64,000 nt of DNA from Anaerolineales bacterium UBA3082 (GTDB taxonomy: Bacteria; Chloroflexota; Anaerolineae; UBA7937): positions 13,540 through 77,539 of the forward strand of contig DFBK01000011.1 of NCBI GenBank assembly GCA_002366595.1. Direction: 5' to 3'. The position numbers were made by a program, and so were the translations under genes. The notes below the pieces were generated by a model, which saw only the letters and a program-made list of their open reading frames with translations, did no database searches and had not been told where the DNA came from. Shown here piece after piece: positions 263 through 53,330 of this stretch (positions within the stretch are counted from its first letter, which is position 1; every line of letters starts with the position of its first letter).

Positions 263-2896
263 TCAACCTTGCAACTCCACCTTCACCCAATCCAACATAA
301 TTCCCAAGTCTCTACTGTCCTCGCTTAACCCCGCGGCCCGAGGGTTCCAGGTGTCGGTTTCCAAGCGAAGGACTGGGTTGCGACCCGCGAAGTCAGCCAA
401 GAGGATCGCTGGCACCGAAGCGCGATATGTATCGAACTCTGGGCCCAGTTCGAACTCGTCCAGCAACACTTCGTTCAAGTAAAGGGATACGTTGGACGAG
501 GGTGTTCCCTCTGGCCGGGGGCTTGCCATCCGGAGAGTCACCCCCATTGCCCTAGATGCCTTGAGCGGGGGCAGTGCTATCTGAGCGACTTGCCCCGTCC
601 ATCGGAAGTCGATCGTATCCAGACCTCTTTCTTTATGGTAGAAGCCTCCAAGCAGAAAGTTTGAATCCAACAAGCCTATGTCTAGGTAAAAGGGGTAAGC
701 GGGCTTGCTCTCGGCCTCCTCCGTCGAAAGCAAGAGGTAGATCTCGAGGGGTAGAGTAAAGCGGAGTCTCTGGGTCGGGATATGCTCATACGAGTGTTCC
801 AAGGCTGGTACGTCGATCCAAAGCCCCTCGCGTGGAATGAGAACGAACTCATCCGAGAATGGGGCTGGGGCGTCATCCCCTTTGATCAGAAACAGCTCCT
901 TCCCTTTGCGTTGCCAATCTCTGGCTAGTTTCTCTAGGGCCGGAATATCCCTTTTGGCGCCTCGAAACCCGAATATCTCTCTCTGGAAGATGTACTGGAG
1001 GGGCGTACCGACAAGATCGCTAACCCCTACCGCCTGGCTTTGGGGGACCAGCACCATCGCCTCTTCGGGAAGAAGGTTTGCCAAAACCTGCAACTGACTC
1101 GCCGCTCCTTGGTATTCCACGTGCCCTATGATATACCAATCCACTCGCAGAAGCAAGAGGATGAGGACAACGCTGAGGGCCAAGGAAAGGTACCGTTCCC
1201 ATCCTCCGAGAGGCGCGCTATCTCGGGCCCAGAGAAGGGCATAGGCGGCTAGGATGAGGAAAGAGGGGATCACCACCGGCACATAGCGGCGCATGACGTA
1301 GATATGGTGGGGGTTGGCCAGAGTGCGATAGAGATACAAGGTGGAGAAAAGGGAAGCGATAGCCAGGAAGTAGAGGTTTTTCGGCGAGAGGTCTCGCCAA
1401 AGAACGGCTGAGGCACCCACTGCCGCCAGCCATATCCCCAAAGGCGAGAGGTACCATCCCAGTCGTACCAGGTTCTGGTGATCATAATTGGGGATCCAGG
1501 CGTCGACGTACCAATAGTAGAAGGATTCAACATGACCAAGGGCAGGCCGTACAAAGTAGCCGTAGAGGGCCAGAAGGCAAACCATGATGATCAGTGCCCC
1601 CAGGATTCCCCTCCGGCGAGACCATAGAGCATCCCCCAAGCGGGAGATCCTATCGGCTCGAGCCAGGAGGAGAAAGTAGCCCATGAGGGCCAATGAGAGG
1701 CCCCAGAGAAGGCGAGTGGAGGTGAGGCCCAACCCCTCCAGCACCTGGCTGTAGGTGTCCTTGACATAGGGCCAAGAAAAAGCCCGCCAGTGAAGCAAGG
1801 AATGCGAAACCATGAAAAGTAGGGGCAGGAAGAACCAAGCGTGAGCGGCTCTCAGCCGGCGAGAGAGGCTCAAGTAAAGGAAGAAAATCAAGGGAGGGAT
1901 CAGGAGCAAAGGTGCATCTATGCGGGTCAGAAGCACCGCGCCGAGGGAGAGCCCTGCCGCCAGAGCGAAGAGCCGCTGGGGTCGTTGCCCGTCAACCCAA
2001 GCGGCGAAGGCATAGATCGCACTAAAGACGAGAAACTGGGATAGTGCTTCCGAGGTCGGATAGCGGGCGAACCAAATCTGGGCAGCGGTGATAGTAAGGA
2101 GGAACGCGGCTAGACCGGCAACTCGAGCGTCGAAGAGCCTCCGGGTAGCGAAATACACGCTCAATACCCCCAGCAACCCCCAGCAAGGAGTAGCGTATAG
2201 GCTACCATTGAGACCAAAGAGGCGATGAAAGAGAGCTATCCAGAGGGGATGCAAGGGCAGGAATTGAGGACTGATGAGGCCTCTCTCCAAGTCGATGATG
2301 TAGAAACCGGGAAACCTCAAGTAGCGGGCCGTAGAACTTGGAGGCTGCTCGCGGAGCAGCAGAGGAGCTAGCAAGGGATCCAACTCGCCCAGTTCCTTAT
2401 CTTCGATGCGGAGGGAACCGGTAGTGGCGATATTAGCTCCCTGGCTCACGTAAACGCCAGCATCGGCCCCTCCAAACAGGTATTCGTGCGGATGGAAGAA
2501 CAGCGCTGCCGCCAGGGCCAGGATGCCTGCCAAGACGAGAGTGTGGCGAGAGGGATGCCAGCGGGTTGTCGGAAGAGCTACAGCGCGCGCGTGGAGGAGG
2601 TATAGGACAAGTGCCGAGAGGTAACCGAGGAGTAGAAAGACCAAATTGCGAAGAGTAAGCCAACCTATCTCTCCCAGCAGCAGAGCGATGCAGGAAGTAA
2701 GGAGCACGCTGAGGAGTAAGGAAAGAAAGCAAAGATCGGGCACGTCCTCTGTAGATTCCTGGCTTTCGGTCGGCAGCGTCTCCGGTCTAAAGGCCCCGAA
2801 CGCGGCCAGGGTGGCATAGCCCGGAAGGAAAAAGAACAGAGGCAACGAAATCAACGCTTGTAGAACCGCGGTCAAGTTGGGCAAGCTCGCGCACAC
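263..2896 (-). CDS. Large polytopic membrane protein (877 aa), GT-C-like (ArnT/PMT-family-like) putative glycosyltransferase with C-terminal soluble domain
   Basis: Long ORF. The N-terminal ~640 aa contain >12 hydrophobic helices with short loops, typical of COG1807/ArnT-like GT-C enzymes. The C-terminal ~230 aa are hydrophilic. No clear catalytic motif could be verified by eye. Confidence 0.55.
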   Translation of the reverse strand: MCASLPNLTAVLQALISLPLFFFLPGYATLAAFGAFRPETLPTESQESTEDVPDLCFLSLLLSVLLTSCIALLLGEIGWLTLRNLVFLLLGYLSALVLYLLHARAVALPTTRWHPSRHTLVLAGILALAAALFFHPHEYLFGGADAGVYVSQGANIATTGSLRIEDKELGELDPLLAPLLLREQPPSSTARYLRFPGFYIIDLERGLISPQFLPLHPLWIALFHRLFGLNGSLYATPCWGLLGVLSVYFATRRLFDARVAGLAAFLLTITAAQIWFARYPTSEALSQFLVFSAIYAFAAWVDGQRPQRLFALAAGLSLGAVLLTRIDAPLLLIPPLIFFLYLSLSRRLRAAHAWFFLPLLFMVSHSLLHWRAFSWPYVKDTYSQVLEGLGLTSTRLLWGLSLALMGYFLLLARADRISRLGDALWSRRRGILGALIIMVCLLALYGYFVRPALGHVESFYYWYVDAWIPNYDHQNLVRLGWYLSPLGIWLAAVGASAVLWRDLSPKNLYFLAIASLFSTLYLYRTLANPHHIYVMRRYVPVVIPSFLILAAYALLWARDSAPLGGWERYLSLALSVVLILLLLRVDWYIIGHVEYQGAASQLQVLANLLPEEAMVLVPQSQAVGVSDLVGTPLQYIFQREIFGFRGAKRDIPALEKLARDWQRKGKELFLIKGDDAPAPFSDEFVLIPREGLWIDVPALEHSYEHIPTQRLRFTLPLEIYLLLSTEEAESKPAYPFYLDIGLLDSNFLLGGFYHKERGLDTIDFRWTGQVAQIALPPLKASRAMGVTLRMASPRPEGTPSSNVSLYLNEVLLDEFELGPEFDTYRASVPAILLADFAGRNPVLRLETDTWNPRAAGLSEDSRDLGIMLDWVKVELQG

Positions 2897-2959
2897 CTTT
2901 CTGGTTTGGAAGGAAATTCGCCTTTGCCTCTCGTACCGTCCGAGGGGAGAGAGGCGGTC

Positions 2960-5894: not shown

Positions 5895-7745
5895 CTATTT
5901 CACGACGAGAGGGAAGAAGAACTTCTCCACCGGGCCTACATAGAGGGTCACGGGTTGGATGATGTAGGGACTGTTGAGTACCCCTGGGCCGCCATCGATA
6001 GTGATCGAACTGAGATCGTAGGTGCCGGCCGGGTATCCTGAGGCATCCACCGCGACGATGATTTGGGAAGGGGAACTGGCGGTGGCAGTCCCGGAACTGG
6101 GCGTCACCGAGACGACCTCTGGTTGGCTCGCCGTGGCCGTCCAGTTGATGCTTCCTAAGCCTCGATTTCTTATGGTGATGGTATGGTAGGAGGGGGTCGT
6201 GTTCCCACCTTCCTGGTGAAGGAATAGAAGAGACTCCTTGTCCACAGAGAGGGTAGGAGGGGAGGGGTATAGCCCCGTATGCTGAGCGTTCTGGTGGAAG
6301 ATAGGCCAGGGGAGTTCAGCATCCGCCGAGGGACCCACCTCCCAGACATAGAGATAGCCGTGAGTCTGGTCGAAATGGTCGGATCCACCGATAGAGATCT
6401 CCAGTTTGCCATCGTGGTCGATGTCGCCTATCGCCGGTGAGCCGAAAAGGGAAAAAGTGGTAGAGAGGATCTCTTCCAAGGAGCCGTTCCTACCGTAGAT
6501 CTGAACGTCCCAGAGCATGGCAAAGAGTATTTCTAGTTCTCCGTCCCCGTCGTAATCAGCCATGGTAGGGGACGAGCGGATGAAATGATTGGTACTCATG
6601 CTATTCCGAGGGGTGACGGGCCAGCCTGCAACTGGGCTACCGTCGTGGTGCCAGGCGTAAACCTTTCCTTGCTCGAGGTCTCCAGAGCCGATGATGATCT
6701 CTAGATCACCGTCGTTGTCGAGGTCGGCCAGGGCTGGGGAACTGAAGCCGGGGAACTCCGTGGCCGCTGGCCACCCGGGCAGGAGATTCCCATTTCTATC
6801 CCAAGCGTAGACGGCCAGGGTAGTGGGATTGCCCTGGGCCCACCAATACCAACCAGTGCCAACTACGATTTCCAGATAGCCATCGTTGTTGATATCGCCT
6901 ATCGCCGGGGATGAATAGATGGTTTCGTTAATCCAATTCTTGACCAGGACATTGCCGTCCTTGTCGAAGACGTAGAGGTATCCGCCGTCGTAGGTGGGAG
7001 GCGTGATATGAGAATTGCCCGTGATGTCGGCCCCGATGATGATCTCCAGCCCTTCCACGTCAGGGCGCAGATCCGCTATGGCAGGACTCGACCAGATGGA
7101 ATCCCAGTTATCGTGCTCCCAAATCTTTTGGCCATTGTGATCGATCAGGTAGATCCAGCGATCCCAGCCTCCAAAGGCGATTTCCAGATCACCATCCCCA
7201 TCCACATCTCCTAGGGCCGGAGAGGAGAAGACGCCGTCAGTATGCCCATCTCCGTTTTGATCGTAGGTATAGAACTTCCAGAGAAAGGTCCCATCGGCCC
7301 CGTTGTAGGCTACCAGACCACCATGTTGGGCTAGGTCGCCTGGATCGCCTCCTACGCTGACGACTACCTCCATGTCGCCATCGTTGTCAATATCTCCTGC
7401 CGCAGGTGAGGAGTTGATTGGGGCTTCGGCATTCCTCTGCCAGAGGATGCTCCCATCATAGTTAACGGCCACCAGCCAGTAGGGGTTGGCGCTGCTGGTG
7501 CCCACCGCTGTGGTGCCCACTAGGATCTCGTCGTAACCGTCGTTATCGATGTCGGCAAAGATGGGAGACGATTCGATCACTTGGCCGCCCGGAAGTTGCA
7601 CCGGGAAGCCTGGTTTGGTAGAGGCGGAAAGGGGGGCAGAAGCAGCGGGAGTGCGAATAGCCGAAATCAACCAAGTAAACCCTATAATCCAAAGGGAAGA
7701 GATCAACCATCGTATAACCTCTTCCCTTCTTGCTCCTCTCATCAA
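5895..7745 (-). CDS. Secreted/membrane-anchored FG-GAP (VCBS-like) repeat beta-propeller protein with C-terminal Ig-like domain
   Basis: An N-terminal hydrophobic signal/anchor is followed by about eight repeats carrying a Ca-binding-like 'D-x-D/N-x-D-G-x-x-E' motif (DIDNDGYDE, DIDNDGDME, DVDGDGDLE, DINNDGYLE, DLDNDGDLE, DYDGDGELE, DIDHDGKLE), each preceded by 'SSPA'. This is the classic FG-GAP blade signature. The C-terminal ~110 aa are a Ser/Thr-rich beta-sandwich-like segment. Confidence 0.8.
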   Translation of the reverse strand: MMRGARREEVIRWLISSLWIIGFTWLISAIRTPAASAPLSASTKPGFPVQLPGGQVIESSPIFADIDNDGYDEILVGTTAVGTSSANPYWLVAVNYDGSILWQRNAEAPINSSPAAGDIDNDGDMEVVVSVGGDPGDLAQHGGLVAYNGADGTFLWKFYTYDQNGDGHTDGVFSSPALGDVDGDGDLEIAFGGWDRWIYLIDHNGQKIWEHDNWDSIWSSPAIADLRPDVEGLEIIIGADITGNSHITPPTYDGGYLYVFDKDGNVLVKNWINETIYSSPAIGDINNDGYLEIVVGTGWYWWAQGNPTTLAVYAWDRNGNLLPGWPAATEFPGFSSPALADLDNDGDLEIIIGSGDLEQGKVYAWHHDGSPVAGWPVTPRNSMSTNHFIRSSPTMADYDGDGELEILFAMLWDVQIYGRNGSLEEILSTTFSLFGSPAIGDIDHDGKLEISIGGSDHFDQTHGYLYVWEVGPSADAELPWPIFHQNAQHTGLYPSPPTLSVDKESLLFLHQEGGNTTPSYHTITIRNRGLGSINWTATASQPEVVSVTPSSGTATASSPSQIIVAVDASGYPAGTYDLSSITIDGGPGVLNSPYIIQPVTLYVGPVEKFFFPLVVK

Positions 7746-7840: not shown

Positions 7841-10800
7841 TCAGGGCTCGGTGACCGTCACTTCCCCCAAGGGGACCCTATCTCCTTGTAGTTGCCCGTC
7901 TTCATTCAGCACCGCCAAGCGTTCCATGGTGGAGAGCAGATACATCCCTGCCTCTAGTTGATATCTTCCCGGAGGCGCATCATCGTAAACGAGAAGCTCA
8001 TATTCGTCCCTCACTATCTCGCCCTCCTCCCAAACGGATGTGGGATACCAACCCCCCAAGGGCTGGTTATCCTGCTGTGCCCATATCTTGGAACTCTCGT
8101 CTAGCAAATGGGTGAAGACTGTGTAGTCCTCATCCATCGTCCGCTCCGCTCGCCAATAGAGCGTCAGATGCAACTTCTCCCCTGCAGTTACAGTGTGGGC
8201 ATCCAAGTCATAACCAAGCAGAGCCACCTCATCCCCCAGGCCGACCTCCAAGGGATGCTCTATGGCCGCAAGGTCGATGAACTCTTTTGGCCTAACGATC
8301 ACCAGTGGAAGCTCAACCTTAGTGCTTCTCACGCCTGACTGACGGTCGATGGTCGGCAGGGATCGCGCTTGGTAGTCTATCTCCTCATAGATATCAACTA
8401 CGAGCCGGTAGACCCCTATTGGCAGGTCGAAGGGGATGTAGAACTCATCTTCCACCATCTCCCCCTTGGCCCACTGTGTGGTGGGGAGACCTTTACGGTG
8501 CGGCTGGTCATCGATCTGCCACAACAGGTGATAGTCTTCATTGTGGAGGGCGACTCGAACGAAGTAGTCCTTTTCTAACTCCTCCAAAGCCTGCCAATAG
8601 AGACTAAGGTGCAATATCGGCCCTGGACACAGCCCATTTCGCCCTATTGCCTCTTCCTCGCTTAACACATAACCCAAAAGCGCGATCTTTCCCCCCAGGT
8701 CGACTTGCATAGAATTCGCTATCTCAGACGGGGAGGGTATCCGACGCCTGTCTTGGGGGCCTAGATAGTTGACTAAAGGTTCCTGATCTTCAATGACGGA
8801 TACCCATCCAGCAGGGGTGGAATAGGGCTCGAGGATTTTCCAATCAGAGGAGAGCGAGATAGATGCCGGACCGTATGAATCGGGAGTCTCGATGACAAAA
8901 GGAACATCTATCAGTTGGCCCGGGGCGATGATTAAGGGCGGCTCCAGGGACAATTCCCCGGAGGCGATTTCCTTCCCATCCCGCAGCCACTGGTAGCGGA
9001 CCCGATAAGGAGTCAAAGAATCCCTCACGTAACTGCTGCGACCCCGGTTGTATAGTCGCACATAAAGAAGAAAGGGACTTCCTTTTGGCACTTGGCAAGG
9101 GACCTCAAACGATGTCAAGAGAGTGGGGTAGTCAATCGGCGGGCTGAGCCGATAGGCGTAGTCGTCCCCTGAGCGATGTACCTCTGTGAGATATGGCGAA
9201 AGACGAGGTATGCTCTCTTGGATGCTTTGCCATTGCTCCTCCGCGAACTCAGCCTGGTGAAGGATGATATAATCCACCCCTAGCCCTTGTAGGAGCTCCA
9301 AGGATCTGATGGAGGGGAATTCCTCTAACTTACGGGCGATCTGAAAGTATAGATCAGGGTAGAAGCCTCCATATCCATTTACGAGATTTTTCCAATGGTA
9401 AGTGGAGTAGTACACACGCCTGGCCTCGAACCAGTGCTCACGGGTCAGGGTATAAAGGGGTAACTCGACTACTGCTAACTCACCCTCCTGCGATGCTAAC
9501 CAGTGGTAGACCTCGGGGACTCTAGGACCATGAGGTGCTAGCTCCAATTTCATCGGCACGGAGATATATTCGATGGCTACTAAAGAAACCATGACCAACC
9601 ATAGGGAGGTTTTGATGCCCTCCTTCTTGACTACTCCAGGCTCAGCAGCCGGTGAACATCTCTCGATCCGTCTCCATAGACTGGAGACCCCAAAACCGGC
9701 TAGGACGCTGAGGGCCAATACTACAAGAACCCCGAATCTGGCAGGGACACGAAACAGTCGAAATCCTGGCACATAGTTGTATAACCAGTGATAAGGTAGA
9801 TAGAGAGATAGCCGGGACTTGGAAAACTGTCCGCCGGTGCCCAGGGAGAGGATGAAAGCCATAACCAGGAGACAGAGGTAGAGGAAAGGGATGGTCTTGC
9901 CCTTCCCCCGGCCTATCAGCAGATCCGAGGTCAAGGAACCGGTCGACAATAGCATGGTAAGCACACCGAAGAGGGCCAAGCCGATGGCTAGAAATCCGGG
10001 AAAGAGCGAATGCTCTGTTAGGTTCAGATAGGGGTCGGCCTCTGCCCGGGAACGTGCTATCCGGCCATAGAGCCAATTGCTTGTCGGTGCTGTTACATAG
10101 TCAGTGAAAAAGGCTCCATACCACTTGACCTCCTCCAATGGACGCTCTAACCCCAACTTTTGGCTAGTGTCAAAGTATGGCTTGGCCAATGGCAAGCTAA
10201 TGGCTGCCGTAGCTAGGACGAAGAGAGCAAGCCGGAGGAAGAGCGCTCGGGATCGCAGGCTCCTCTGCAGCATCAAATAGACAGCGATGAAAAGCCCCGT
10301 TGAGAGAGCCAGGAACACAGCATAGTAATAATCAGATTGGGCCTGAAGATTGAAAAATAGGACAAGTAGGCCAAGATGCTGTTTGGCTTTGGTCTGCATA
10401 AACTTGTGGAGGTAGAGAAGGGTGAAGGGCATCCACTCGGTCGTCATCAGGTTGAGATGGCCAAGGTGGGCGAATCTGTAGGGACAAAAACCGAAGATGA
10501 GCCCTGCAATTACACCCGCCCAGCGGTTGCCTGTGAGATGGGTGACCAGAAGATAGATCCCAAAAGAAGAGAGGGTGAAGGAGACGAGAATGAGCAAGTT
10601 ATAGGCCAGGATCGGGTTCCCACAGAGAAACAAGATAGGGGAAGCCAGCAAGGCGCTGGCCAATGTATTGGGGTGCCAAGTTAGTGTTCGAGGAAAGGGA
10701 TAGAATATGTTTGAATCGAACAGGCGCAACGGATCGGTGGTCAGTTGACGGAGATCCCAAGCGAGCATCCACGCATGCTCAAGAGGATCGCCACCAAAGT

Positions 10801-21885: not shown

Positions 21886-21899
21886 AGGGTTGTCTTTGG

Positions 21900-32883: not shown

Positions 32884-32884
32884 A

Positions 32885-34237: not shown

Positions 34238-34289
34238 GATCGTCTCCTAGATGGCTCCGATCTCTGCGTGCTGTCTCAGCTTCGTCGCC

Positions 34290-38024: not shown

Positions 38025-38086
38025 CTGAAATCGGTATCTGCTTCAAATAGCCATTCGACCATACCAGAGATGTTACTATCCCCAGG

Positions 38087-38377
38087 CTAGACCTGTCTCT
38101 TCTTCTCGCCCGCTTGTTCAGTGCCTTCTTGGCGCGGGGAAGAGAAGCCCGCCAGGCTACTGAGGGCCATGGCTATGCCGCCCGCAACACAGATAGCCAG
38201 AGCGAGGTAGGGCCTAGTTCCCACGAAGGCGATGGCGAGCAAGGAAAATAGAATCCATAAAGAAAGGGGCTCCAAAATCGTGATTAGAGATTTCATCGCC
38301 CTTCCATAGCAAGACTGGGTATCAAGCCTTCTGGGCCGAAAGTTCTTCTTCCACAAGTATGCCCTTGCGGAAGTCAA
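38087..38377 (-). CDS. Hypothetical small membrane protein (96 aa)
   Basis: Two hydrophobic helices ('LSLWILFSLLAIAFV', 'LALAICVAGGIAMALSSLAGF'). It overlaps the transaldolase 3' end by ~56 bp, so its coding status is uncertain. Confidence 0.3.
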   Translation of the reverse strand: MTSARAYLWKKNFRPRRLDTQSCYGRAMKSLITILEPLSLWILFSLLAIAFVGTRPYLALAICVAGGIAMALSSLAGFSSPRQEGTEQAGEKKRQV

Positions 38378-39652: not shown

Positions 39653-39655
39653 GGT

Positions 39656-40249: not shown

Positions 40250-40384
40250 GCTTATCTCTACGACATTCTATGAGCCCGTAGCGAGCGGTGCTTGAGTGAC
40301 GAGTCGAAAGCCGCTTGGTCTGGTTTCGACAAGTTCAACCCAAGGGATGTGTCGCTTCGTCCCCTTCGGCAGGATCGGGCGACA

Positions 40385-41374: not shown

Positions 41375-41375
41375 G

Positions 41376-42089: not shown

Positions 42090-42104
42090 GGTTGTGACTG
42101 ATTG

Positions 42105-43121: not shown

Positions 43122-43123
43122 AG

Positions 43124-43990: not shown

Positions 43991-45315
43991 GATTGACTCC
44001 TTCCCAGCGAAATACCCCGGCCGATCCCAGAGTAGGCAAACCCTAGTTGAATCATTTCTGTCGGGTCGAAGACATTCCTGGTATCAATGAACAGTGGCCG
44101 ACGCATGGCAGCGCGCAGGCAGGGTAAATCCAGGTCGTGAATGCCCGCCCACTCGGTTACGAGCACGAGGGCATCACTGCCCTCAGCAGCAGCATAGGGG
44201 TCGGGACAGGGTTCAAAGGGGGGCAGGTCGGCCACTTCATCCAGGCGGGCCAGTGGGTCGAAGGCTTTGACGGAAGCCCCCTGGGCGACCAAATCACGGA
44301 TGATGTCCAGGGCGATAGATCGGCGCAGAGTGCTGGTGCCGGGCTTATAGGTCAGGCCTAGGATGCCTACCTGAAGGCCCTCCAGCGAGTCGTATATCCT
44401 CTGCAGGCGTCGCCCCACCAGGCTGGCACGCGCCTGATTGACGACCATCACCGCGTCTATCATGGGGGTGTCACACCCGTGTTGCTGACCGAGCCTCTGG
44501 AGTGCCCGAATCTCGCGCCCCAGGGTGCCCCCGGCGAACCCCAGTCCCGGCTTGAGAAAGGCGTACCTACTGATTCGCCGATCAAGCTTCATAATCTGAG
44601 CTACCTGCAATGCGTCGGCGCCGACTTCATCGCACAGGCTGGCCATCTCATTGATAAAGCTGATGGAGGCGGCCAGAAAGGCATTGGAGGCATGCTTCGC
44701 CATCTCCGCGGTGCGCAGGCCGGTGATGACAATGGGCCGACCCAGGGGGCGATAGAGGGCCGCAATCCGTTCAGCCACGGCAGGGTCATTGGCACCCACC
44801 ACGAAACGGTCCGCACGGCGGAAGGTATCCACCGCTGCTCCCAGACGCAGGAACTCCGGCACGTAGGCCACGTCGAGGGCTGCCGCCGGATTCTCCTCCC
44901 GCACAATGGCGGTGATGCGCTCGCAGGTACCTACCGGCACCTGAGCACTGACGATCAGGATCAACTCCCCAGACATGGCCTGTCCGATATGCCGGGCTGC
45001 TTCGAAGATGCTGGTCAAATCCGATTCATCATCAGGTCCCACTGGCGTGTCGATGGCGATGTAGGCAAACTCGGCTCCGTGCAGTGCCTCTCTGTAGTCA
45101 GTCGTATACTTCAACCGCCCGGACCGCACGTTGCGGCGCATGATCGTTTTGAGTTTCGGCTCGTACACCGGAGGTTGGCCGGCGTTCAAGGCAGCCACAA
45201 CCCTCTCGTCATCACCCACTCCGCACACCTGGTGCCCCATGTCGGCTAGGCACGCAGACAACACCGACGCCTGATGCCAGAGGCCGACTATGCAGATGTT
45301 CGCCAATGTGCTCAC
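43987..45315 (-). CDS. Nucleotide-sugar dehydrogenase (UDP-glucose/GDP-mannose dehydrogenase family)
   Basis: N-terminal Rossmann 'ICIVGLWHQASVLSACLADMGHQV' and a central catalytic Cys in 'GLGFAGGTLGREIRAL' (GGxCxxKD-like region is 'FAGGTLG'). The three-domain length (442 aa) fits the family. The 4-bp ATGA overlap with the SDR gene indicates coupling. Confidence 0.75.
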   Translation of the reverse strand: MSTLANICIVGLWHQASVLSACLADMGHQVCGVGDDERVVAALNAGQPPVYEPKLKTIMRRNVRSGRLKYTTDYREALHGAEFAYIAIDTPVGPDDESDLTSIFEAARHIGQAMSGELILIVSAQVPVGTCERITAIVREENPAAALDVAYVPEFLRLGAAVDTFRRADRFVVGANDPAVAERIAALYRPLGRPIVITGLRTAEMAKHASNAFLAASISFINEMASLCDEVGADALQVAQIMKLDRRISRYAFLKPGLGFAGGTLGREIRALQRLGQQHGCDTPMIDAVMVVNQARASLVGRRLQRIYDSLEGLQVGILGLTYKPGTSTLRRSIALDIIRDLVAQGASVKAFDPLARLDEVADLPPFEPCPDPYAAAEGSDALVLVTEWAGIHDLDLPCLRAAMRRPLFIDTRNVFDPTEMIQLGFAYSGIGRGISLGRSQS

Positions 45316-45406
45316 TCCTGTCTTTGCCTGATGGCAGATGGCTGATGGCCCAAGACCGACCGCCGACGGCCGACCGGAACGAATGACGGCAGTCCGTAAT
45401 CAGCGG

Positions 45407-46612
45407 TCAGCCGTCGATCCGCTGGATGACCCCCTGCTCGCGCATCACCCGCTCTGCCTCTTCCAGGTACTCTTTCGTGCCCCGCTGCTTACGGATCCAG
45501 GCAATATACTCCACCACGCTCTGCTCCACTGGGATGGTGGGCTCCCATCCCAGGACGCGAAGTTTGGAGATGTCCGACACGGTGTGGCGGGTGTCTCCGA
45601 GCCGGAACTCGCCGGGAATGAGGGGCTCCAGATCGCTGTCGAAGGCATCCAACATGATGCGGGCGAACTCCAGGACGGTGACCGCTCGGCCACCGCCCAC
45701 ATTGAAGACCTCAAAGTTGGCCCGGTCATCTTCCAAGACTAAGAGGTTAGCCCGGGCGACGTCACAGACATTAACGTAGTCGCGCAGTTGTTGGCCATCC
45801 TCATAGATGATGGGGGGCAGGCCATGGAGCAGGCGGAGAGCGAAGCGGCGAGCGATGCCAGAGTAGGCGTTGTAGAAGGAGTTGCGGGGCCCCTGCACGT
45901 AGGTGTAGCGCATGCAGACCGTAGGGATACCGTAGCGCCGGCCCAGCCGATCGGCCAGCAGTTCGATGGCGTACTTGGAGATGCCATAGGCAGTACCAGG
46001 GCTGACCGTGTCTTCGTCAATCAACACCGGCTGCATGACCCCACCACAGTCGGGGCAATGGATTTCCCAGTCGCCGCGTTTCAATTGTTCCAATGGGCGT
46101 GGGGCAGGGATGTGGATGGCGGATGACAGAAGATGGAAGGTGGAAGAATGGAGCGCGGCCAGTTGTTCATGGACGGTGGGCGGGTTGATGCCGCCGGCGC
46201 AGGTGGGGCAGAGATACCGACCCTCACCACACACCGCCTGGGACGAGGCGAAGGTGATCTTTTGCACAGGGTAGCGCTCCCGGTTGGAGACAATGAGCTC
46301 GAAGAGGAGAGCAGCGCTCTCTGTGTTGGTATGAATAAAGGTGGAGAAATCGGGCATGTAGTCCTGGTAGGCAGCCAGGTGAAAGACGTAGTCCACACCC
46401 CGGAGCGCCCGGCTCAGATCATCTTGGTTCACCACGTCGCCCTGGATGAACTCAGCCTCTTTCGGCATGTAGGAGGGCTTGCCTCTAGGGTGTACCCGGG
46501 GTTGCAGGTTGTCCAGGATGCGGACACGATAGCCCTTTTCCAGCAGCAGATCAACCGTATGGGAGCCGATGAAACCAGCCCCGCCGGTCACAAGCACTTT
46601 TGGTGATGGCAT
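45407..46612 (-). CDS. Extended-SDR NAD-dependent epimerase/dehydratase with ~50-aa four-cysteine (zinc-ribbon-like) insertion
   Basis: 'KVLVTGGAGFIGSHTVDLLLEKGYRV' is the TGGAGFIG motif. The catalytic Ser region is 'FASSQAVCGEG', and Y-x3-K is 'YGISK'. About 70 residues separate the catalytic Ser and Tyr, versus ~25 in typical extended SDRs. The insert contains 'CGEGRYLCPTCAGG' and 'CPDCGGV'. Confidence 0.8.
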   Translation of the reverse strand: MPSPKVLVTGGAGFIGSHTVDLLLEKGYRVRILDNLQPRVHPRGKPSYMPKEAEFIQGDVVNQDDLSRALRGVDYVFHLAAYQDYMPDFSTFIHTNTESAALLFELIVSNRERYPVQKITFASSQAVCGEGRYLCPTCAGGINPPTVHEQLAALHSSTFHLLSSAIHIPAPRPLEQLKRGDWEIHCPDCGGVMQPVLIDEDTVSPGTAYGISKYAIELLADRLGRRYGIPTVCMRYTYVQGPRNSFYNAYSGIARRFALRLLHGLPPIIYEDGQQLRDYVNVCDVARANLLVLEDDRANFEVFNVGGGRAVTVLEFARIMLDAFDSDLEPLIPGEFRLGDTRHTVSDISKLRVLGWEPTIPVEQSVVEYIAWIRKQRGTKEYLEEAERVMREQGVIQRIDG

Positions 46613-46700: not shown

Positions 46701-47366
46701 CTAATAGTTGCTGCCCGACAGCACATACCAAGCCGCACCGAAGAGGAGTTTGATATCAAGCCAGAGGGACCAGTTATCAATGTACTCCAGGTCAAGTTTG
46801 ATCCACTCTTTGAACTCTTTGGGCTTGCCTCGGACGTGCCAGAGGCAAATCATGCCGGGGGTGACGCTGAGTTTGCGCCGTTGCCACTCTTCAAAATGTT
46901 CCCACTCCGCAGGACCGACTGGGCGGGGGCCGACTAGGCTCATGTCGCCTTTGAGGACGCTCCAGAGTTGGGGCAGTTCATCCAGGCTGAACTTGCGTAA
47001 GACGCGGCCCACGGGCGTAACCCGCGGGTCATTTTTTAGTTTGAAGGTGGGGCCGTTCCTCTCGTTGTATTGCCAGAGGTCTTTCTTCAGTCCGTCGGCG
47101 TTGACGACCATGGTACGGAGTTTGTAGCCGGTGAATCTTTTGCCGCCTTTTCCAATCACAACCCATTGATAGAGAACAGGACCAGGTGAGGTAATCTTGA
47201 TAACTGCGCCGATAGCGAGCAGAAGCGGAGTTAAGATAACCAACGACATGGCAGAAATACCCACATCAAGTATCCGTTTCACACCCAATTGCCATCGAGA
47301 AGCAAGCAGACGTGTCTGACCAAGATGCCTCAGGGGCATTTTCTCTGGAGACACATCATGCAGCAT
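46701..47366 (-). CDS. Small monotopic phosphoglycosyltransferase (PglC/WcaJ-C-terminal-like sugar transferase, Bac_transf)
   Basis: 'KRILDVGISAMSLVILTPLLLAIGAVIKITSPGPVLYQWVVIGKGGKRFTGYKLRTMVVNAD...DELPQLWSVLKGDMSLVGPRP' is the complete Bac_transf signature in a 221-aa protein. Confidence 0.9.
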   Translation of the reverse strand: MLHDVSPEKMPLRHLGQTRLLASRWQLGVKRILDVGISAMSLVILTPLLLAIGAVIKITSPGPVLYQWVVIGKGGKRFTGYKLRTMVVNADGLKKDLWQYNERNGPTFKLKNDPRVTPVGRVLRKFSLDELPQLWSVLKGDMSLVGPRPVGPAEWEHFEEWQRRKLSVTPGMICLWHVRGKPKEFKEWIKLDLEYIDNWSLWLDIKLLFGAAWYVLSGSNY

Positions 47367-48588
47367 GCTGCCGCTCCTTCCGCTTTTTCTCTGTTACACC
47401 ACCTTGACCTACGTTATCTTGTTGATGCAGGATCTTGTGATAGAACTTCTCTAACTGAGTAGTGAGCATTTCCCACGAAAGTTGCTCTTCTGCTATCCGC
47501 CTGGCATTGGAGCCCATTTCCTCCCGCAAGCCTTGATCTTCCAGGAGAGATAGCGTTGCTCTGGCAAAGCCTTGAGGATTATCATTGGCCAACAAGCCGA
47601 TATTGTGCTCTCTGAACAACACCGATACATCACCCACCGGACAGGTTATGATTGGTCTGCCTACGGCAAGGTAATCGTTTATCCTTGACGGCCACCTCGC
47701 TTGGTTACTAGTAGTGTTGCAGAGAGGAAGCATTAGTATGTCACAAGCGGCGAGATATCTAACCAAATTCTCGTAATCGACGTAACCGGTTTCTATCACG
47801 GCGGTAGCGCTAATTTCGTGTAGCGCGATATTTGCTCTATGATTGCCAATCATAATCAACTTGCAGTCGCTATGACGCTTATGAATAACCGCGAAGGCAT
47901 TTAAGAGGAGTGCAGCGTCCTTCGGCTGCAATACCCCCAAATGGCCGAGTAAAGGAGCCTCGAGAGGGAGGCCGAGGGCCCGTCGCGCCTCGAACTGGTC
48001 TAGTGGTCTGATCCGCTCAACGTCTGAACCTTGAGGAATCCTCATGATGGTGCTTTCATTCACCTGCAGGGAGAGCGCGCGCTGATAGAGCGCTTGACTG
48101 ATCACTGTAGTGCCATCTGCATACTTGCGAAAGGCTTCCTCGAAAAAGGTTTCTATCGGAGCTAGCATGCGCCACAGCAGTTGATTTGGTCGCTCATAGA
48201 TTGTCCCACCTCTGCCCCACCAGTCCGCCCAATCCAATACGAGTTTGCTTTGCTGCATGGTTTTGTGGTAAAGCGCCGGAAGAATGACCGCAGGTCGTGA
48301 ATCGAACGCATGAACAAGGTCGAAAGACCGATCATGAACATATGCTATGCGATTCAGCGTGTCCCAAGGATCCCAACCTGATCGGGTGACTCCCCAAAGG
48401 AGGTCAGGCGTCTCAAACACCTTTAGGCCTTCAATGACCTTCTCCCTAAACCCGTAGCGCAAAGTAGGAGAGATTGTCAGTAGCGTGACCCGATGCCCTC
48501 GCCGCGCTAGGTGTCGACCGAAGTGATAGGCTCGAAAGAAGGTACCACCGCGCCAGGCAACATTGTGGTTGAGCATCAAGATGCGCAT
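47356..48588 (-). CDS. Glycosyltransferase family 4
   Basis: 'MRILMLNHNVAWRGGTFFRAYHFGRHLARRGHRVTLLT' is a GT4 N-domain. The C-terminal domain has 'LLGHLGVLQPKDAALLLNAF' and 'PLCNTTSNQARWPSRINDYLAVGRPIITCPVGD'. Start taken at the internal Met abutting the upstream stop; the longest ORF extends to 48681. Confidence 0.8.
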   Translation of the reverse strand: MRILMLNHNVAWRGGTFFRAYHFGRHLARRGHRVTLLTISPTLRYGFREKVIEGLKVFETPDLLWGVTRSGWDPWDTLNRIAYVHDRSFDLVHAFDSRPAVILPALYHKTMQQSKLVLDWADWWGRGGTIYERPNQLLWRMLAPIETFFEEAFRKYADGTTVISQALYQRALSLQVNESTIMRIPQGSDVERIRPLDQFEARRALGLPLEAPLLGHLGVLQPKDAALLLNAFAVIHKRHSDCKLIMIGNHRANIALHEISATAVIETGYVDYENLVRYLAACDILMLPLCNTTSNQARWPSRINDYLAVGRPIITCPVGDVSVLFREHNIGLLANDNPQGFARATLSLLEDQGLREEMGSNARRIAEEQLSWEMLTTQLEKFYHKILHQQDNVGQGGVTEKKRKERQHAA

Positions 48589-48589
48589 A

Positions 48590-49759
48590 TCACGCTCGCG
48601 CTGCTTCTTCCAGAATCTCGAGAGTGCGGGCAGCGCTTCGTTTCCAAGTGTAATCTTTCGCCCTCTGTCGTCCACGCACAATCAAGCTCTGGTGCAAGGA
48701 TCGATCATGCAGTACACGTTCCATGCCATCGGCAATAGAGTCCTCGTCAAGTGGATCCACCAACACGGCGGCGTCTCCGGCCAATTCGGCCATGCTGCCG
48801 CTATTTGAAGTCACGACCGGACAGCCGCAGGCCATAGCTTCCAAAGCGGGATATCCGAAGGTCTCGTAGAGCGATGGGATCACCGCCAAATCAGCGCCCA
48901 AGTAGGTGGCTGCTGCCAAGTGATGATCCAGCCTATCAGTAAATACCACATCCTCTAGCACACCGGCCTGCTTGGCTACCATTCGCAGTTCATCAAATGA
49001 AACGCTGATCTCGCTGCCCACCAGAAGTAGGACATGGCGCAGGTTTGTGCGTCGTTTCAACAAGCCGAAAGCACGAATTAAGCGAGCGTGATTCTTGTAG
49101 CCATAGGTTGACGATACATACAAGATGTACGGTCGGCCTGCGGTTAGTTCAGCGCCCACTCGTCGCTCCGGGGCATCCTGCGGCACCTCTGCCAGCCTCC
49201 AGATATCCCATGAAAGTCCATGCGGCACAATACTTACTTTCTCTGCTGGCACTCCCGTCCAGTGCACAAGATCACGCTTGGAATGTTCCGTAAAGATGAT
49301 GACACTTACCGCTTTTTTCAGAGACAATGGCAACATGTAGCGCAGGTAGGCCCCGCGCAATCGCCCATAAGCCTCTGGCATTTCGTAGAACTGAAGGAAT
49401 TGCACTGCCAGCACCACGGGGGTCTTGGTTAGCAAAGGCGCTACTGTTGCAGTAGCAAAGAATACATCCAGCCGTTGACTGGCAATAGCAGCAGCCAACC
49501 CAGTTTGCTGGTAGAGAACACGCGGTGGGCGACTAACCGGAACGCCGGGGAGCCTCACTATTTCGACGTTCGACGGAATTGTCTCCAGCACTGGGTCTGC
49601 CCAAGCTGGCGTAAATAGAATGAATTGATGCTGAGGGCCTTGGATGACAAACTCTGTCAACAGTGATTGTAGATACACTCGCATTCCGCCCGGTCCCTGC
49701 CGGCTTGTCGCTTCTCCAGGCGAGATATTGTCTATGCCAATGCGTAGAGAACGGCTCAT
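48590..49759 (-). CDS. Glycosyltransferase family 4
   Basis: 'YILYVSSTYGYKNHARLIRAF' and the 'PSLYETFGYPALEAMACGCPVVTSNSGSMAELAGDAAVLVDP' Glycos_transf_1 core (E-x7-E). Confidence 0.85.
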   Translation of the reverse strand: MSRSLRIGIDNISPGEATSRQGPGGMRVYLQSLLTEFVIQGPQHQFILFTPAWADPVLETIPSNVEIVRLPGVPVSRPPRVLYQQTGLAAAIASQRLDVFFATATVAPLLTKTPVVLAVQFLQFYEMPEAYGRLRGAYLRYMLPLSLKKAVSVIIFTEHSKRDLVHWTGVPAEKVSIVPHGLSWDIWRLAEVPQDAPERRVGAELTAGRPYILYVSSTYGYKNHARLIRAFGLLKRRTNLRHVLLLVGSEISVSFDELRMVAKQAGVLEDVVFTDRLDHHLAAATYLGADLAVIPSLYETFGYPALEAMACGCPVVTSNSGSMAELAGDAAVLVDPLDEDSIADGMERVLHDRSLHQSLIVRGRQRAKDYTWKRSAARTLEILEEAARA

Positions 49760-51509
49760 CGCTTACGCAACAAGAATGAGCCTAAGCTGAGGTACTCTAG
49801 GCCGGAGTTGGAGAACACGTGCAAGGCGTCAGCGACATTGCACACCACTGGCTCCCCATGTAAGTTATACGAAGTGTTGAGCACCGCGCCAATTCCGGTG
49901 AGTTTTTCGAACTGCTTGATCAGCGCGTAATACGCTGGGTTCCACCGCTCTTCGACAATCTGCGGCCGCAGTGTCATATCATATGAGTGCATCGCCGCTC
50001 GCAGTTCGCGCTTTGCTCGAGCGGTGGAATGGAACGCCAAGATCATGTAAGGCGCTGGGACATTCTTTGGGTTGATCAGGTAATCATGTGCTCGTTCAGC
50101 CAAGATGCTCGGTGCGAATGGCATCCAAAAGTCGCGGCTCTTGATCTGGTCATTGATCACCCGTACGATATCAGGGTTAGATGGATGAGCCAGAATGCTG
50201 CAGTTGCCAAGTGCCCGTGCGCCCCATTCCATCCGCCCGTCGCGACGGGCCACGACTTTTCCTTCCCTAGCAGTTGTGCTACGTGTTGGATCATGTCGCC
50301 CGGTTTCTCGATGATGTATTGCGCAGCCAGGTTATGATCGCGTATGTAACGCTCGATGTCCGCGTCGGTATACTGGGGCCCCCAGTACAAATCGCGAATG
50401 GATTCGCCCTCCCAGGGGAGACCTTGGCGCTCGCAACATTGTTTATAGCCGTAATATGCCGCACCAATTGCGCCGCTTTCGTCGCCACAGCTTGGGAAGA
50501 TGAATAACTCCTCCACCTCGGGCATTTCCATCACGCACATATTCGCTTTGACATTCATGAATACGCCACCAGACAGGACGACCGTCCGGATCCCGGTTGC
50601 GGCAATGGCATTCTGGACCAACTTGACGATCAGCTCCTCAATTAACCGTTGAATCGCCCCAGCAATGGAGTCGAACCGGTGTCCCCTCAGCCGCTCTTGG
50701 AGATAATACGGGACCAATTGGCTGCGCACCTTCACACGCAACGAGAGAGTGTCGTCAACCAAGCCTATGAGTTCAGCAAAAACAGGGTAGGTCTTATCTA
50801 TGTTGTACTCGCTGCAGTATGGCGCCAGCCCCATCACCTTGTATTCGTGCTCAAGTGGTTTCATCCCCATGTACTCAGTAATCTGGGAATACAAGTGTCC
50901 CAGTGAGTTGGTATCATCAATCTGTGCAATCCGGGTTAGCATGCTGTCTTTGGCGACACTTATCGTTCCGGAGAGACCGTCGCCTTCACCGTCAAGCGTG
51001 ATGACAAGCGATGGTTTGCCAATGAACGGGCTGCCATACCAACAATAAGCATGGGCAGTGTGGTGATCCACAAACAGAATGCGATCCTCCGGAACGGGCA
51101 ACACCTCCAGAAGGGGTTTCACCCTGTCACCGGAGGCCAGAGCAGTGCCGATTCTCTGGACTGCACGCCGACCCGCTGTGCCAACTGGCCTCAACGACGG
51201 TAGCCGGTATTCGAGGCGCCTCATCCATACTCGAGGAGTGTGAGAGATATGGGAGAGACCTCGCTTGAACTCGCTTCTGACCATGGATCCCAGGAACGCC
51301 CGGTGACCCAGGAAACAAACTAAATCCACGTCGCCTGGGCCAATGGCTGAAGTCTCTATCAGCCACTTGACAGCGCGCCTGGGGAAACCAGTTTCGTTCT
51401 TGATCCGCGTGAACCGCTCCTCGCTCACGCAGGCGATCACCCTCCCATCCTGGAGAAGGCACGCAGTCGCCAGGTGACCATCATTGATTCCGAGAATGTA
51501 CATGTTCAA
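49756..51509 (-). pseudogene. Carbamoyltransferase (NodU/CmcH family) interrupted by a single frameshift
   Basis: The N-terminal ORF (50157-51509) reads 'MNMYILGINDGHLATACLLQDGRVIACVSEERFTRIKNETGFPRRAV', the NodU/CmcH N-domain. The C-terminal ORF (49756-50253) reads 'RRDGRMEWGARALGNCSILAHPSNPD...', the conserved EFGPRALGNRSIL region. The two frames overlap over ~100 bp. Near 50262-50270 one frame gives 'LGKEKSWP' and the adjacent frame gives 'GKVVARRDG', consistent with a 1-nt indel. Confidence 0.75.
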
Positions 51510-51575
51510 TCTTCTCTCGAATGTTACCTGTAATTACCAGGTGATTGCCGTCCCCATCCGAATACACTCGCCCGT

Positions 51576-53330
51576 TCATTTCGCATCGGTCGGTTGGTCA
51601 CACTCACGAGCCCTCGTTTCAGAGGTGTCTACCTTGACGATGTAATACTTAATCGTGCCAATATTGACTTGATATACGATCTCGGTAATCGGGATTCCTC
51701 TCCACATTGATGAGGTCATCGGCTGAATCTTATTGTTGTCAGCAAGATATTGAATTCCCTGCAATTGCACGAAGCACGCTAACTGATTGCGCTCCAAATA
51801 CCTCAGAAACTCATAGCTATTGACCAGCCCATCCAGGTTTGTGATGCGCCGATGGCTGAAGTAGCCCAACACGCCTGCGTTCCAGGAACCTACCACAGAG
51901 TCAGGGGGGAGGTTCTTATCAATCCATTGGGCCGCCAGATAATTGGCCTCCGATGCCTCCACGTTAGGATATACGGGCCGCTGAGCATCAGAAAGCCAGA
52001 GGGGCAAGATAATCACAGCCAATAGTCCTACAGCGCGACCAGCCCAAACGGCTGCCGTGTTGCTTTTGAGCCAACATTTTGCGAATTGCCACAATAGGCG
52101 TAGAGTGGACGCTCCTAGAAAAGTCAAGACCATATATTCAGGCACCAGCCACCACCATGTCCCACTAGTAACTAGGAATGATGGGAACAAGATGACGTAG
52201 GCTCCAAAGTGCAAAAGAGTAAACAGGAATAGAAGCCAATTGCGCCTAAAGCTCTTTGATTCTCTTCTAACTATCTCTGAGGACGACTGCAATCTGCGTG
52301 CACCATAAACCAAAACACTCGCTGCAATCAACAAACTTGAGATCAAGGCCAAAAGGAGCATCCATCCACCGCTGCTTGGATTAGTGAGAGCAGCGTAGAA
52401 TGTTGGAAACAACAGTCTCACCCCTCCACTCATGAACGAACGAGGCATAGCGAATGTCCCAAATAAATGTCCAACTAGATATAGGGTCGCTGCGACTGCC
52501 ATCTGGAGAGCAAAGAGTAAATAATTCATACCTCCAAGTTCGCGGATAAGCATCTCAGTTTCCAGAAGTTTTGCCGCCCCACTAACTGGTAGTAAATGAC
52601 CGAAGTAGACTTGGTTAATGAGAAGATAAGGCACAATCACTACTGCACAAGGAGCAACGATCAGTCCGGAGACCCGGATGCGTTCTGTCCATCCTTTGGG
52701 CCATGTCTTCCATAATAGAGTGATCCACACTATCGGCATCAACAGGTACGCGTCCGTTCGCGCCAGAAAAGTAAATCCCACTAGCAACCCGAGCAGAATC
52801 AACTGCTTATGCTTTGTGGAAACACCATTCGCACGAAACTCTTTTACGTAGTAATAGCTCGTAGCGCCCAGTAACATTGCATACAGAGGGCTCTCCATCC
52901 CCGCAAGCATCTTGGTAACTAGTCCGGGGGAGAACAACCAGATCCAAGCTACAACAATGGCAATGCGTTTGCCGCCAACAATGCGCGCCAGGGCATACAG
53001 GAACCAAGCAGACGCTATATGAATAAGGGCATTTGTCACTGCAAAGATACGCACTTGGGTGGTTGGATCGGAGACTCCAAACCATGTAGACAGCTTCGTC
53101 ACTGCAAGAATAGTTAGGAACCATAGAGGTTGAACCCCGTTCGTCAAATTCACACCATCAAAGGTCAATCTTCCACTGTTCAAGTAATTTCGCCCGATCT
53201 GAAAGTAATAGAAGGCGTCGTCAATGCGCATCAAGTAGGAGCGGTCTTGCATCCAGATGAAGACAAGATAGATCACCAGGGCGACAGCCATACCAAATTG
53301 AACCAGGAAATCGTCCTTGCGACTTGTCAT
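51576..53330 (-). CDS. Polytopic membrane protein, GT-C-like putative glycosyltransferase (584 aa from internal start)
   Basis: ~13 hydrophobic helices. An early loop carries 'DDAFYYFQIGRNYLNSGRLTFDG', a DD/DE-type GT-C loop-1-like motif. Start chosen at 'MTSRKDD' so that it abuts the upstream GT4 stop; the longest ORF extends to 53573. Confidence 0.5.
   Translation of the reverse strand: MTSRKDDFLVQFGMAVALVIYLVFIWMQDRSYLMRIDDAFYYFQIGRNYLNSGRLTFDGVNLTNGVQPLWFLTILAVTKLSTWFGVSDPTTQVRIFAVTNALIHIASAWFLYALARIVGGKRIAIVVAWIWLFSPGLVTKMLAGMESPLYAMLLGATSYYYVKEFRANGVSTKHKQLILLGLLVGFTFLARTDAYLLMPIVWITLLWKTWPKGWTERIRVSGLIVAPCAVVIVPYLLINQVYFGHLLPVSGAAKLLETEMLIRELGGMNYLLFALQMAVAATLYLVGHLFGTFAMPRSFMSGGVRLLFPTFYAALTNPSSGGWMLLLALISSLLIAASVLVYGARRLQSSSEIVRRESKSFRRNWLLFLFTLLHFGAYVILFPSFLVTSGTWWWLVPEYMVLTFLGASTLRLLWQFAKCWLKSNTAAVWAGRAVGLLAVIILPLWLSDAQRPVYPNVEASEANYLAAQWIDKNLPPDSVVGSWNAGVLGYFSHRRITNLDGLVNSYEFLRYLERNQLACFVQLQGIQYLADNNKIQPMTSSMWRGIPITEIVYQVNIGTIKYYIVKVDTSETRARECDQPTDAK

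Follow-up and report, generated by a model that had tools for sequence, protein, structure and literature searches.

GT-C enzymes are membrane-embedded glycosyltransferases that, to our knowledge, give many bacterial surface glycans their final structure, and we know of no characterised member for most of their bacterial subfamilies. Here we analysed five GT-C proteins (A to E) encoded in 64,000 nucleotides of DNA from Anaerolineales bacterium UBA3082 (GenBank assembly GCA_002366595.1, contig DFBK01000011.1, positions 13,540 to 77,539 of the forward strand), a stretch that we refer to in its entirety as the window. One of the five, C, belongs to a conserved cassette with a glycoside hydrolase of family GH5 and a small bitopic protein, u19150. 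The arrangement recalls the ‘dual-chain’ pathway of the lactococcal and streptococcal rhamnose-rich cell-wall polysaccharide (Rha-CWPS), in which the DUF2142-type GT-C protein WpsI is the proposed polymerase, WpsJ is the proposed transferase and WpsH is a two-helix co-polymerase; WpsI and WpsJ polymerise a Wzx-flipped chain and attach it to an ABC-exported rhamnan (PMC9574508, PMC12599335, PMC9746298).

As in that pathway, the window combines genes for an ABC-exported polymer, for a Wzx-flipped lipid-linked unit and for GT-C enzymes. The C family is of the DUF2142 type (22 of 41 relatives match PF09913, with a best E value of 2.2e-21, and 14 of 41 match PMT_2), although C itself falls short of the DUF2142 model (no match at E ≤ 0.01). 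The protein that follows C, u19150, carries one helix at either end of a large outer loop and resembles the published description of WpsH in topology alone. Other features separate the two systems. The window shows no GacI/GacJ-like pair (WpsA/WpsB), which makes the lipid-P-N-acetylglucosamine (lipid-P-GlcNAc) primer: its two GT2 proteins lack such features and no small activator turned up, although the pair could lie in another part of the genome. The lactococcal scheme as described (PMC9574508, PMC12599335, PMC9746298) includes nothing that corresponds to the conserved GH5 partner, and the host is an uncultured bacterium of the Chloroflexota type rather than a Firmicute.

With the three- and four-component systems (CsbB/GtcA/YfhO, GtrA/B/V, ArnC/ArnT and GacI-L; PMC5836110, PMC8035078, PMC9574508) the five proteins share a polytopic GT-C architecture and a first outer loop that carries a modified DxD motif. 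Relatives of B have weak YfhO, PTPS_related or DUF6311 matches, and A, C, D and E match PMT_2 at the scores given below. By contrast, the GT2 lipid-sugar synthase and GtrA flippase that define those systems were not found in the window, which encodes a TIGR00374 flippase-like protein and Wzx instead. The mycobacterial enzymes of arabinogalactan and lipoarabinomannan synthesis (EmbA/B/C, AftA-D and the Mpt set) differ in that none of the five belongs at the sequence level to GT53, GT85, GT87 or GT89, although one relative of E matches the GT87 model, and in that the decaprenyl-phosphate arabinose donor pathway is absent. By function, the three-component systems and the Emb/Aft enzymes of mycobacteria are analogues; by family, they do not match. 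STT3, PglB and AglB (GT66), the PMT enzymes (GT39) and TMEM260 stand further away: the five lack WWDxG and MIR domains, and sequence identities are 9-14%.

We propose that the window is probably a composite cell-envelope glycan locus, with GT-C members from five subfamilies placed in different modules. Fold and family membership, conserved motifs and gene neighbourhoods are the observations from which we infer outward orientation, donors, acceptors and every specific role. A and B, which are encoded in a Wzm/Wzt module with GT4, GT2 and methyltransferase genes, would most likely modify or extend the polymer after its export, and their C-terminal beta-sandwich modules probably hold the glycan. 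C would polymerise a flipped lipid-linked unit or transfer the unit onto another chain, with u19150 as a putative co-polymerase or chain-length partner and GH5 as a candidate for trimming or releasing the product. D and E may provide further lineage- or strain-specific steps. Branching, protein O-glycosylation and glycan trimming, the roles suggested in the initial annotation, would still be plausible.

GT-C enzymes in envelope-glycan loci are already known; the five are new, uncharacterised members. They give access to five GT-C subfamilies from a poorly studied phylum, no relative of any of the five has a solved structure or a tested function, and hypothetical proteins of these families can now carry the label of GT-C glycosyltransferase. 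Two features are modestly new: the conserved cassette of C, GH5 and u19150, and B's tandem module, which is swappable.

Five remote relatives in one superfamily

The five genes are present where the initial annotation had placed them, on the minus strand, as are all long open reading frames (ORFs) of the window: A at 263-2896, B at 7841-10936, C at 20332-21885, D at 21900-23519 and E at 51576-53330. Hydropathy analysis gives 7-16 hydrophobic segments per protein, some of which overlap, and family alignments place a conserved acidic residue right after the first (or equivalent) membrane helix in each case; the description of polytopic proteins with an acidic early-loop motif therefore fits all five. 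Their N-termini are basic, which by the positive-inside rule puts the first loop on the outside, a location that is predicted rather than measured. Soluble C-terminal domains had been ascribed to all of them and are present in A, B, D and E; C ends in membrane helices.

Kinship among the five is distant. BLASTP joins only A and D (27.6% identity over 174 amino acids) and returns nothing for the other pairs, on which grounds recent paralogy was rejected. Profile–profile comparison with hhalign links all five through D, with probabilities of 99.0% for A-D (E value 3e-18, over residues 116-378 of A, with D145 of A aligned to D43 of D), 96.8% for B-D, 96.6% for C-D and 95.7% for E-D; the E-C comparison is weak (33%). 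We also examined co-inheritance in metagenomic loci of C relatives, taken as the 80 best loci of one pattern-based scan. Among the 35 long loci (at least 7 kb), homologues of D and A were each found once and a homologue of E was not found. Judged by sequence comparison, the five are remote relatives in one superfamily, from five subfamilies that are not inherited together, rather than recent duplicates, and ‘paralogous-looking’, as they had been called, is too strong.

Profile searches are consistent with GT-C membership. The Pfam gathering cut-offs are 26.1 bits for PMT_2 (PF13231), 23.8 bits for GT22 (PF03901) and 26.4 bits for PTPS_related. A clears PMT_2 (37.2 bits) and D clears GT22 (25.0 bits, with 22.1 bits for PMT_2), whereas C (25.1-25.3 bits) and E (25.1-25.4 bits) are about 1 bit short of PMT_2, and B stays below threshold, with a best score of 17.9 bits for PTPS_related and no PMT_2 match. 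No NCBIfam model matches any of the five. Assignment to a transporter family, which would have contradicted the initial annotation, did not occur at any threshold in Pfam or NCBIfam. A WWD or W[WYF]DxG motif is found in none of the five, and identity as a GT66 oligosaccharyltransferase was rejected on that basis for all of them, B included. The GT-C-type identity with an outward-facing active site that had been proposed is supported by the hidden Markov model matches, the profile–profile comparisons and the fold of B. All five are catalytically plausible members of the GT-C superfamily; a GT-C_A type of fold is supported for B by structural matches and deduced for the other four from their PMT_2, GT22 and DUF2142 matches.

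The five had also been described as lying in one locus at an atypical density. The window is instead a composite of three gene modules (Wzm/Wzt; polysaccharide co-polymerase (PCP), Wzy_C and flippase-like; and a lower-GC Wzx/Wzy module) plus sugar-nucleotide genes, and the five are spread over at least three separate modules. Furthermore, contig L012, which holds a relative of B, has five GT-C genes within 12.5 kb, so dense GT-C arrays are not unusual for this kind of organism.

The C-GH5-u19150 cassette

The probable start of C is Met28 (nucleotide 21804), as in database entries, and D37-E38 is invariant in the family within the motif WQAPDEPxH. A search of the PDB with the membrane-core profile of C returned nothing credible. 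The hydrolase gene (23649-25067, minus strand) encodes a GH5 protein of clan GH-A (PF00150, 35.6 bits against a cut-off of 23.5, E value 9.5e-9) with a leader, the acid/base motif NEP at residue 177 and TE at 298-299, the latter containing the nucleophile. The catalytic residues E178 and E299 are invariant in 4-5 homologues; H252, Y254 and W340 are invariant as well. The secreted GH-A hydrolase of the initial annotation is thus real, with its leader and both catalytic glutamates in place. The third component, u19150 (19150-19896, minus strand), is a protein of 248 amino acids whose two ends each form a membrane helix, with a hydrophilic loop connecting them; it matches no Pfam or NCBIfam family, and its homologues (230-290 amino acids) keep the hydrophobic segment at each end and the hydrophilic middle.

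These genes often lie together. A GH5 or u19150 homologue lies within 3 kb of the C relative in 34 of the 60 informative loci, defined as those with at least 1.5 kb of sequence beside it (GH5 in 24, u19150 in 16), and wherever the order was listed the genes are on the same strand, typically as C-GH5-u19150 or C-u19150. The 35 long loci hold homologues of GH5 (19 loci), the priming transferase (18), Wzy_C (13), the flippase-like protein (12), PCP (9) and u19150 (9). In three diverged loci the C relative adjoins a GH5 homologue with 31-47% identity, and homologues of PCP (49-71%), Wzy_C (44%), the flippase-like protein (30-34%) and u19150 (40%) are nearby; the PCP homologues are upstream of the C relatives in L017 and L018. 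C, GH5 and u19150 form a widely conserved same-strand cassette, often downstream of priming-transferase, PCP, Wzy_C and flippase-like genes. The hydrolase had been put forward as a partner of the whole set; it is a conserved partner, of C specifically.

In the window, D separates GH5 from C. In a 77%-identical relative (L019), GH5 is 238 bp from C and D is absent between them; D is therefore a lineage-specific insertion between GH5 and C. D is a GT22/PMT_2-type protein of 539 amino acids with a C-terminal domain of about 140 amino acids, and its long GTG start is supported by relatives that align from residue 16-25 onward. D43 is present in at least 90% of these relatives, of which 32 of 42 match PMT_2 (best E value 3e-16) and 7 match GT22; others match PMT or STT3.

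Hydrolases such as PslG, BcsZ and PelA are co-encoded with exopolysaccharide machinery, in which they accompany a GT2 synthase or a Wzy protein. The cassette resembles those systems in that a secreted clan GH-A hydrolase gene adjoins the gene of a putative polymerising enzyme and is conserved with it, and departs from them in that the partner is a DUF2142-type GT-C protein. We tentatively suggest that C-GH5-u19150 could be an undescribed GT-C-based unit for extracytoplasmic polymerisation or ligation, widespread in Chloroflexota-type and other uncultured bacteria, in which C would take the role of Wzy or WaaL, u19150 would set chain length and GH5 would trim or release the product. The cassette is a concrete three-gene unit that can be tested. 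If this proposal is true, it extends the lactococcal idea of a GT-C polymerase or transferase well beyond the Firmicutes and adds a hydrolase component.

The linkage of these genes also bears on a different explanation, in which all five proteins are side-chain decorators of three-component systems: a GT2 enzyme makes an undecaprenyl phosphate-linked monosaccharide, GtrA flips it and the GT-C protein transfers it, so that each of the five would add one branch sugar and none would polymerise or ligate. We regard this as possible but somewhat doubtful. It is the commonest documented role of bacterial PMT_2/YfhO-type GT-C enzymes (PMC9574508, PMC5836110, PMC8035078), GT-C_A families mostly use lipid-P-monosaccharide donors (PMC10920833), and GT2 genes encoding 310 amino acids occur near GT-C arrays on contigs L012 and L017. 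However, the window contains neither a GtrB/ArnC-like GT2 nor a GtrA-like flippase; the tight linkage of C with the GH5, PCP and Wzy_C genes and with a bitopic, Wzz-like protein fits chain assembly better than the decoration of chains with single sugars; and DUF2142 proteins are the proposed polymerase and transferase of the lactococcal pathway.

C-terminal modules of A and B

A is a PMT_2-type protein of 877 amino acids: about four helices extend its N-terminus, ahead of a GT-C core and a soluble C-terminal region of approximately 280 amino acids. Its last ~130 amino acids (residues ~740-877; 263-~660) are homologous to the C-terminus (residues ~290-415; 11094-~11470) of a protein encoded nearby, an S-adenosylmethionine-dependent methyltransferase (11094-12341, minus strand; Methyltransf_11, E value 6.9e-11). 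The Smith–Waterman score of the two modules is 65, against 27 +/- 5 for shuffled sequences (z = 8; 0 of 500 shuffles), both proteins end in GLSEDxRxLG and no Pfam family covers the module. This common C-terminal module hints that A and the methyltransferase may recognise the same glycan feature. Kinship of the u19150 loop with the module was also considered and rejected (z values of 0.1 and 1.2).

B is a GT-C-fold protein of 1031 amino acids from a family that has no name. An AlphaFold (AF2) model based on 55 sequences (pLDDT 85, pTM 0.74) shows about 12-13 helices that form the membrane core (residues 1-457), followed by a periplasmic alpha/beta domain (464-597) and then by three beta-sandwiches (606-715, 741-851 and 894-1029) that resemble carbohydrate-binding modules in structure searches. 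D50 is invariant in the family, in the motif GDPL. Homologues are numerous (549 hits) and all are annotated as hypothetical, with a scatter of precomputed matches to PTPS_related (PF10131), YfhO (PF09586) and DUF6311 (PF19830). Sequence searches against the PDB were uninformative: single-sequence searches with A and with B returned nothing, and the membrane-core profile of B, like those of C and E, gave nothing credible, the histamine-receptor and complement matches of these profile searches being noise or derived from beta-sandwich domains. A search of the genome contigs with B found no relative.

The two tandem C-terminal repeats reported for the 1031-amino-acid protein are real. Copy 1 (8387-8728, minus strand; residues ~737-850) and copy 2 (7940-8272, minus strand; residues ~889-999) are both modelled as beta-sandwiches and share 35% identity over 116 amino acids (E value 5e-18); the model adds the sandwich at 606-715 ahead of them. 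A specific function for the repeats was sought with Foldseek, which gave only generic tandem beta-sandwiches (RbmA, arrestins and factor XIII). On contig L012, which comes from another metagenome, a relative of B is followed by PMT/PMT_2, PMT_2, YfhO and PMT_2 genes (12930-22550), and three other GT-C genes of this contig are fused to the tandem C-terminal module of B at 33-42% identity. The large B family, whose tandem module is swapped among different GT-C catalytic cores, offers a lead on acceptor recognition.

Next to B is a gene for an FG-GAP beta-propeller protein, secreted or membrane-anchored (5895-7745, minus strand; FG-GAP_3, E value 1.4e-30; FG-GAP, 7.6e-25). The eight-repeat propeller with a leader that had been predicted from this gene is borne out: there are eight SPxxxD repeats, seven of which carry a DxDxDG..E calcium motif, behind a hydrophobic N-terminal leader, and the C-terminus weakly resembles an immunoglobulin- or BACON-like domain. 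A conserved partnership was rejected. The gene adjoins B only in a 75%-identical relative, in which the gene order is C, u19150, Wzt, GT2, GT4, a gene for 171 amino acids, GT4, GT4, methyltransferase, B, FG-GAP, GT4, GT4 and A. It is absent from the four loci of more distant B relatives, and none of the 35 long loci of C relatives has a homologue. One C-relative locus (L016) encodes an unrelated FG-GAP protein of 1044 amino acids.

A fold search with the membrane core of B returned GT-C enzymes only, and the best structural matches of B are STT3B, Pmt4, Pmt2 and PglB, all of which glycosylate proteins. It might accordingly be that at least one of the five, most of all B, D or A, is a protein glycosyltransferase that O-mannosylates or otherwise glycosylates S-layer or other secreted proteins, as bacterial PMT and TMEM260 do, and does not act on a polysaccharide; we consider this unlikely, with several observations in its favour. 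The D-family profile has weak matches in the PDB to STT3B and, best, to the protein O-mannosyltransferase TMEM260 (E value 9e-4), and A clears the PMT_2 cut-off. The window also contains a GDP-heptose-type cassette (SIS isomerase, GHMP kinase, HAD phosphatase and nucleotidyltransferase), and in some Gram-positive bacteria the GDP-heptose pathway supplies the glycans of S-layer proteins. A further parallel with S-layer glycan loci is that an ABC-transporter pathway occurs together with a methyltransferase and a ligase-like Wzy_C protein. Yet AftD, AftA, ALG9 and ArnT score nearly as high with B as the protein-glycosylating enzymes do, and structural likeness within GT-C_A does not predict the acceptor. 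The lack of WWDxG removes GT66 oligosaccharyltransferases, the beta-sandwiches of B look like carbohydrate-binding modules, and the window yielded neither a candidate acceptor protein nor an S-layer gene.

That some of the five are not enzymes at all, being dead scaffolds or transporters that resemble GT-C proteins, is very improbable, for although the Pfam scores of C, D and E are borderline, that of B is subthreshold and NCBIfam has no model for any of them, the first-loop acidic residue and further polar residues are invariant or nearly so in each family, no transporter family was matched and the core of B has the fold of GT-C enzymes alone.

We therefore return to the composite envelope-glycan locus as the preferred reading, against which several points count. 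The Pfam scores of C, D and E themselves are borderline, C does not match the DUF2142 model that unites many of its relatives, nearly all homologues are annotated as hypothetical, and B alone has a structure model. The likeness of u19150 to WpsH is one of topology, and the lactococcal system was compared by description. The 80 loci that define the cassette are the best of a single scan and not an unbiased sample. Relatives of B often occur singly in neighbourhoods of unrelated genes, which means that B does not have to act on the polymer of this locus. Among the annotated genes of the window there is no GtrB/ArnC/Dpm1/GacI-like GT2 with membrane helices and no GtrA-type flippase. The two GT2 proteins seem to be soluble, and no match came from the eight small intergenic ORFs that were tried as GtrA or activator candidates. 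The sugar donors for the five may perhaps be synthesised elsewhere in the genome.

Protein E and the gene modules of the window

E is a PMT_2-type protein of 584 amino acids in the lower-GC Wzx/Wzy module. Its ORF can be extended to 53573; the start at 53330 (Met82) is likelier because it is directly after the stop of the upstream GT4 gene. D37-D38 is invariant in the motif RxDDAFYYF, 12 of 32 relatives match PMT_2 and some relatives are named GT39. The membrane-core profile of E found nothing credible in the PDB. The same DNA is present in the public run SRR1313318, and a 400-kb ENA contig carries identical proteins; B, C and D each have identical database records, and the gene of A is called on an identical contig (L001). 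For E, no identical record was found in the protein or contig collections, including by exact-sequence look-up. GC content is about 0.53-0.62 in the rest of the window and 0.48-0.52 beyond 52 kb (52000-64000), and the Wzx/Wzy block of E may be strain-variable or acquired. Named homologues are mostly from Chloroflexota, and by a single protein, the UDP-glucose dehydrogenase (87% identity), the closest species-representative genome is a metagenome-assembled genome of the Anaerolineae.

Four blocks of minus-strand genes make up the window. The ABC-transporter block (about 263-31432) contains A, B, the FG-GAP gene, six GT4 genes, one GT2 gene, the methyltransferase, Wzt with its Wzt_C domain, u19150, C, D, GH5, a WbaP/WcaJ-type priming transferase, a TagA/WecG enzyme, a TPR protein, Wzm and one more GT4 gene. 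It is followed by flippase-like, Wzy_C and PCP/kinase genes (31837-36293), by sugar-nucleotide genes that include the GDP-heptose-type cassette (36849-46612) and by the Wzx/Wzy block (46701-63979), with a small priming transferase, GT4 genes, a split carbamoyltransferase, E, a second Wzy_C gene, methyltransferases, a GT2 gene and Wzx. The envelope-glycan inventory thus comprises two priming transferases, the TagA/WecG enzyme, Wzm/Wzt, Wzx, two Wzy_C proteins, PCP and the flippase-like protein, in addition to 11 GT4 and 2 GT2 glycosyltransferases and the sugar-nucleotide genes. Scans of the window for Rfam families and tRNA genes found nothing.

Export and chain-assembly genes could be assigned individually, all on the minus strand. 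The Wzt-type ABC-transporter ATPase (17934-19175) carries a C-terminal glycan-binding domain (ABC_tran, E value 7.6e-22; Wzt_C, 3.8e-33), and the Wzm-type ABC-2 permease (29231-30040; ABC2_membrane, 7.6e-13) weakly matches the galactan Wzm/RfbD model. This permease is the only one of its kind in the window and is approximately 10 kb away from the ATPase rather than adjoining it. The large polyprenyl-phosphate glycosyl-phosphate transferase of the WbaP/WcaJ type (25128-26543) is the priming enzyme (Bac_transf, 1.6e-67; TIGR03025, 445 bits, above cut-off). The flippase-like membrane protein (31837-32883) belongs to LPG_synthase_TM/TIGR00374 (PF03706, 1.5e-43; TIGR00374, 66.6 bits against a cut-off of 43.2), and the PCP (34290-36293) combines Wzz, GNVR and P-loop domains with a tyrosine-kinase-like ATPase. 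The Wzx-type flippase is encoded at 61695-63074 (Polysacc_synt, 2.4e-7).

Two Wzy_C-domain proteins are encoded, one like an O-antigen ligase or polymerase (32885-34237, minus strand; PF04932, 2.7e-23) and a second that is polymerase- or ligase-like (54540-55979, minus strand; PF04932, 9.1e-10). Wzy_C proteins have been placed in the GT-C_B class (PMC10920833). If both are counted, as members of the GT-C class in current CAZy and structural schemes, the window has seven outward-acting polytopic glycan-transfer enzymes rather than five.

The sugar genes include a cassette like that for GDP-D-glycero-D-manno-heptose (38322-42089, minus strand), with a transaldolase, a HAD phosphatase, an SIS isomerase (weak gmhA match), a GHMP kinase and a nucleotidyltransferase. 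A NodU/CmcH-type carbamoyltransferase (49756-51509, minus strand) is divided between two ORFs, one for the N domain (50157-51509) and one for the C domain (49756-50253), which overlap by about 97 nucleotides in different frames; this points to a frameshift, whether from a pseudogene, recoding or an assembly error. Finally, a 187-amino-acid protein that matches no family (14746-15309, minus strand) and a GT2 protein (16471-17976, minus strand; C-terminal ~100 amino acids) both end in long stretches of predicted coiled-coil-like helix. Their genes adjoin those of Wzt and a methyltransferase, and the two proteins have no BLASTP similarity to each other. The coiled-coil ends recall what we take to be the chain-length ‘ruler’ proteins of ABC-dependent O-antigen systems.

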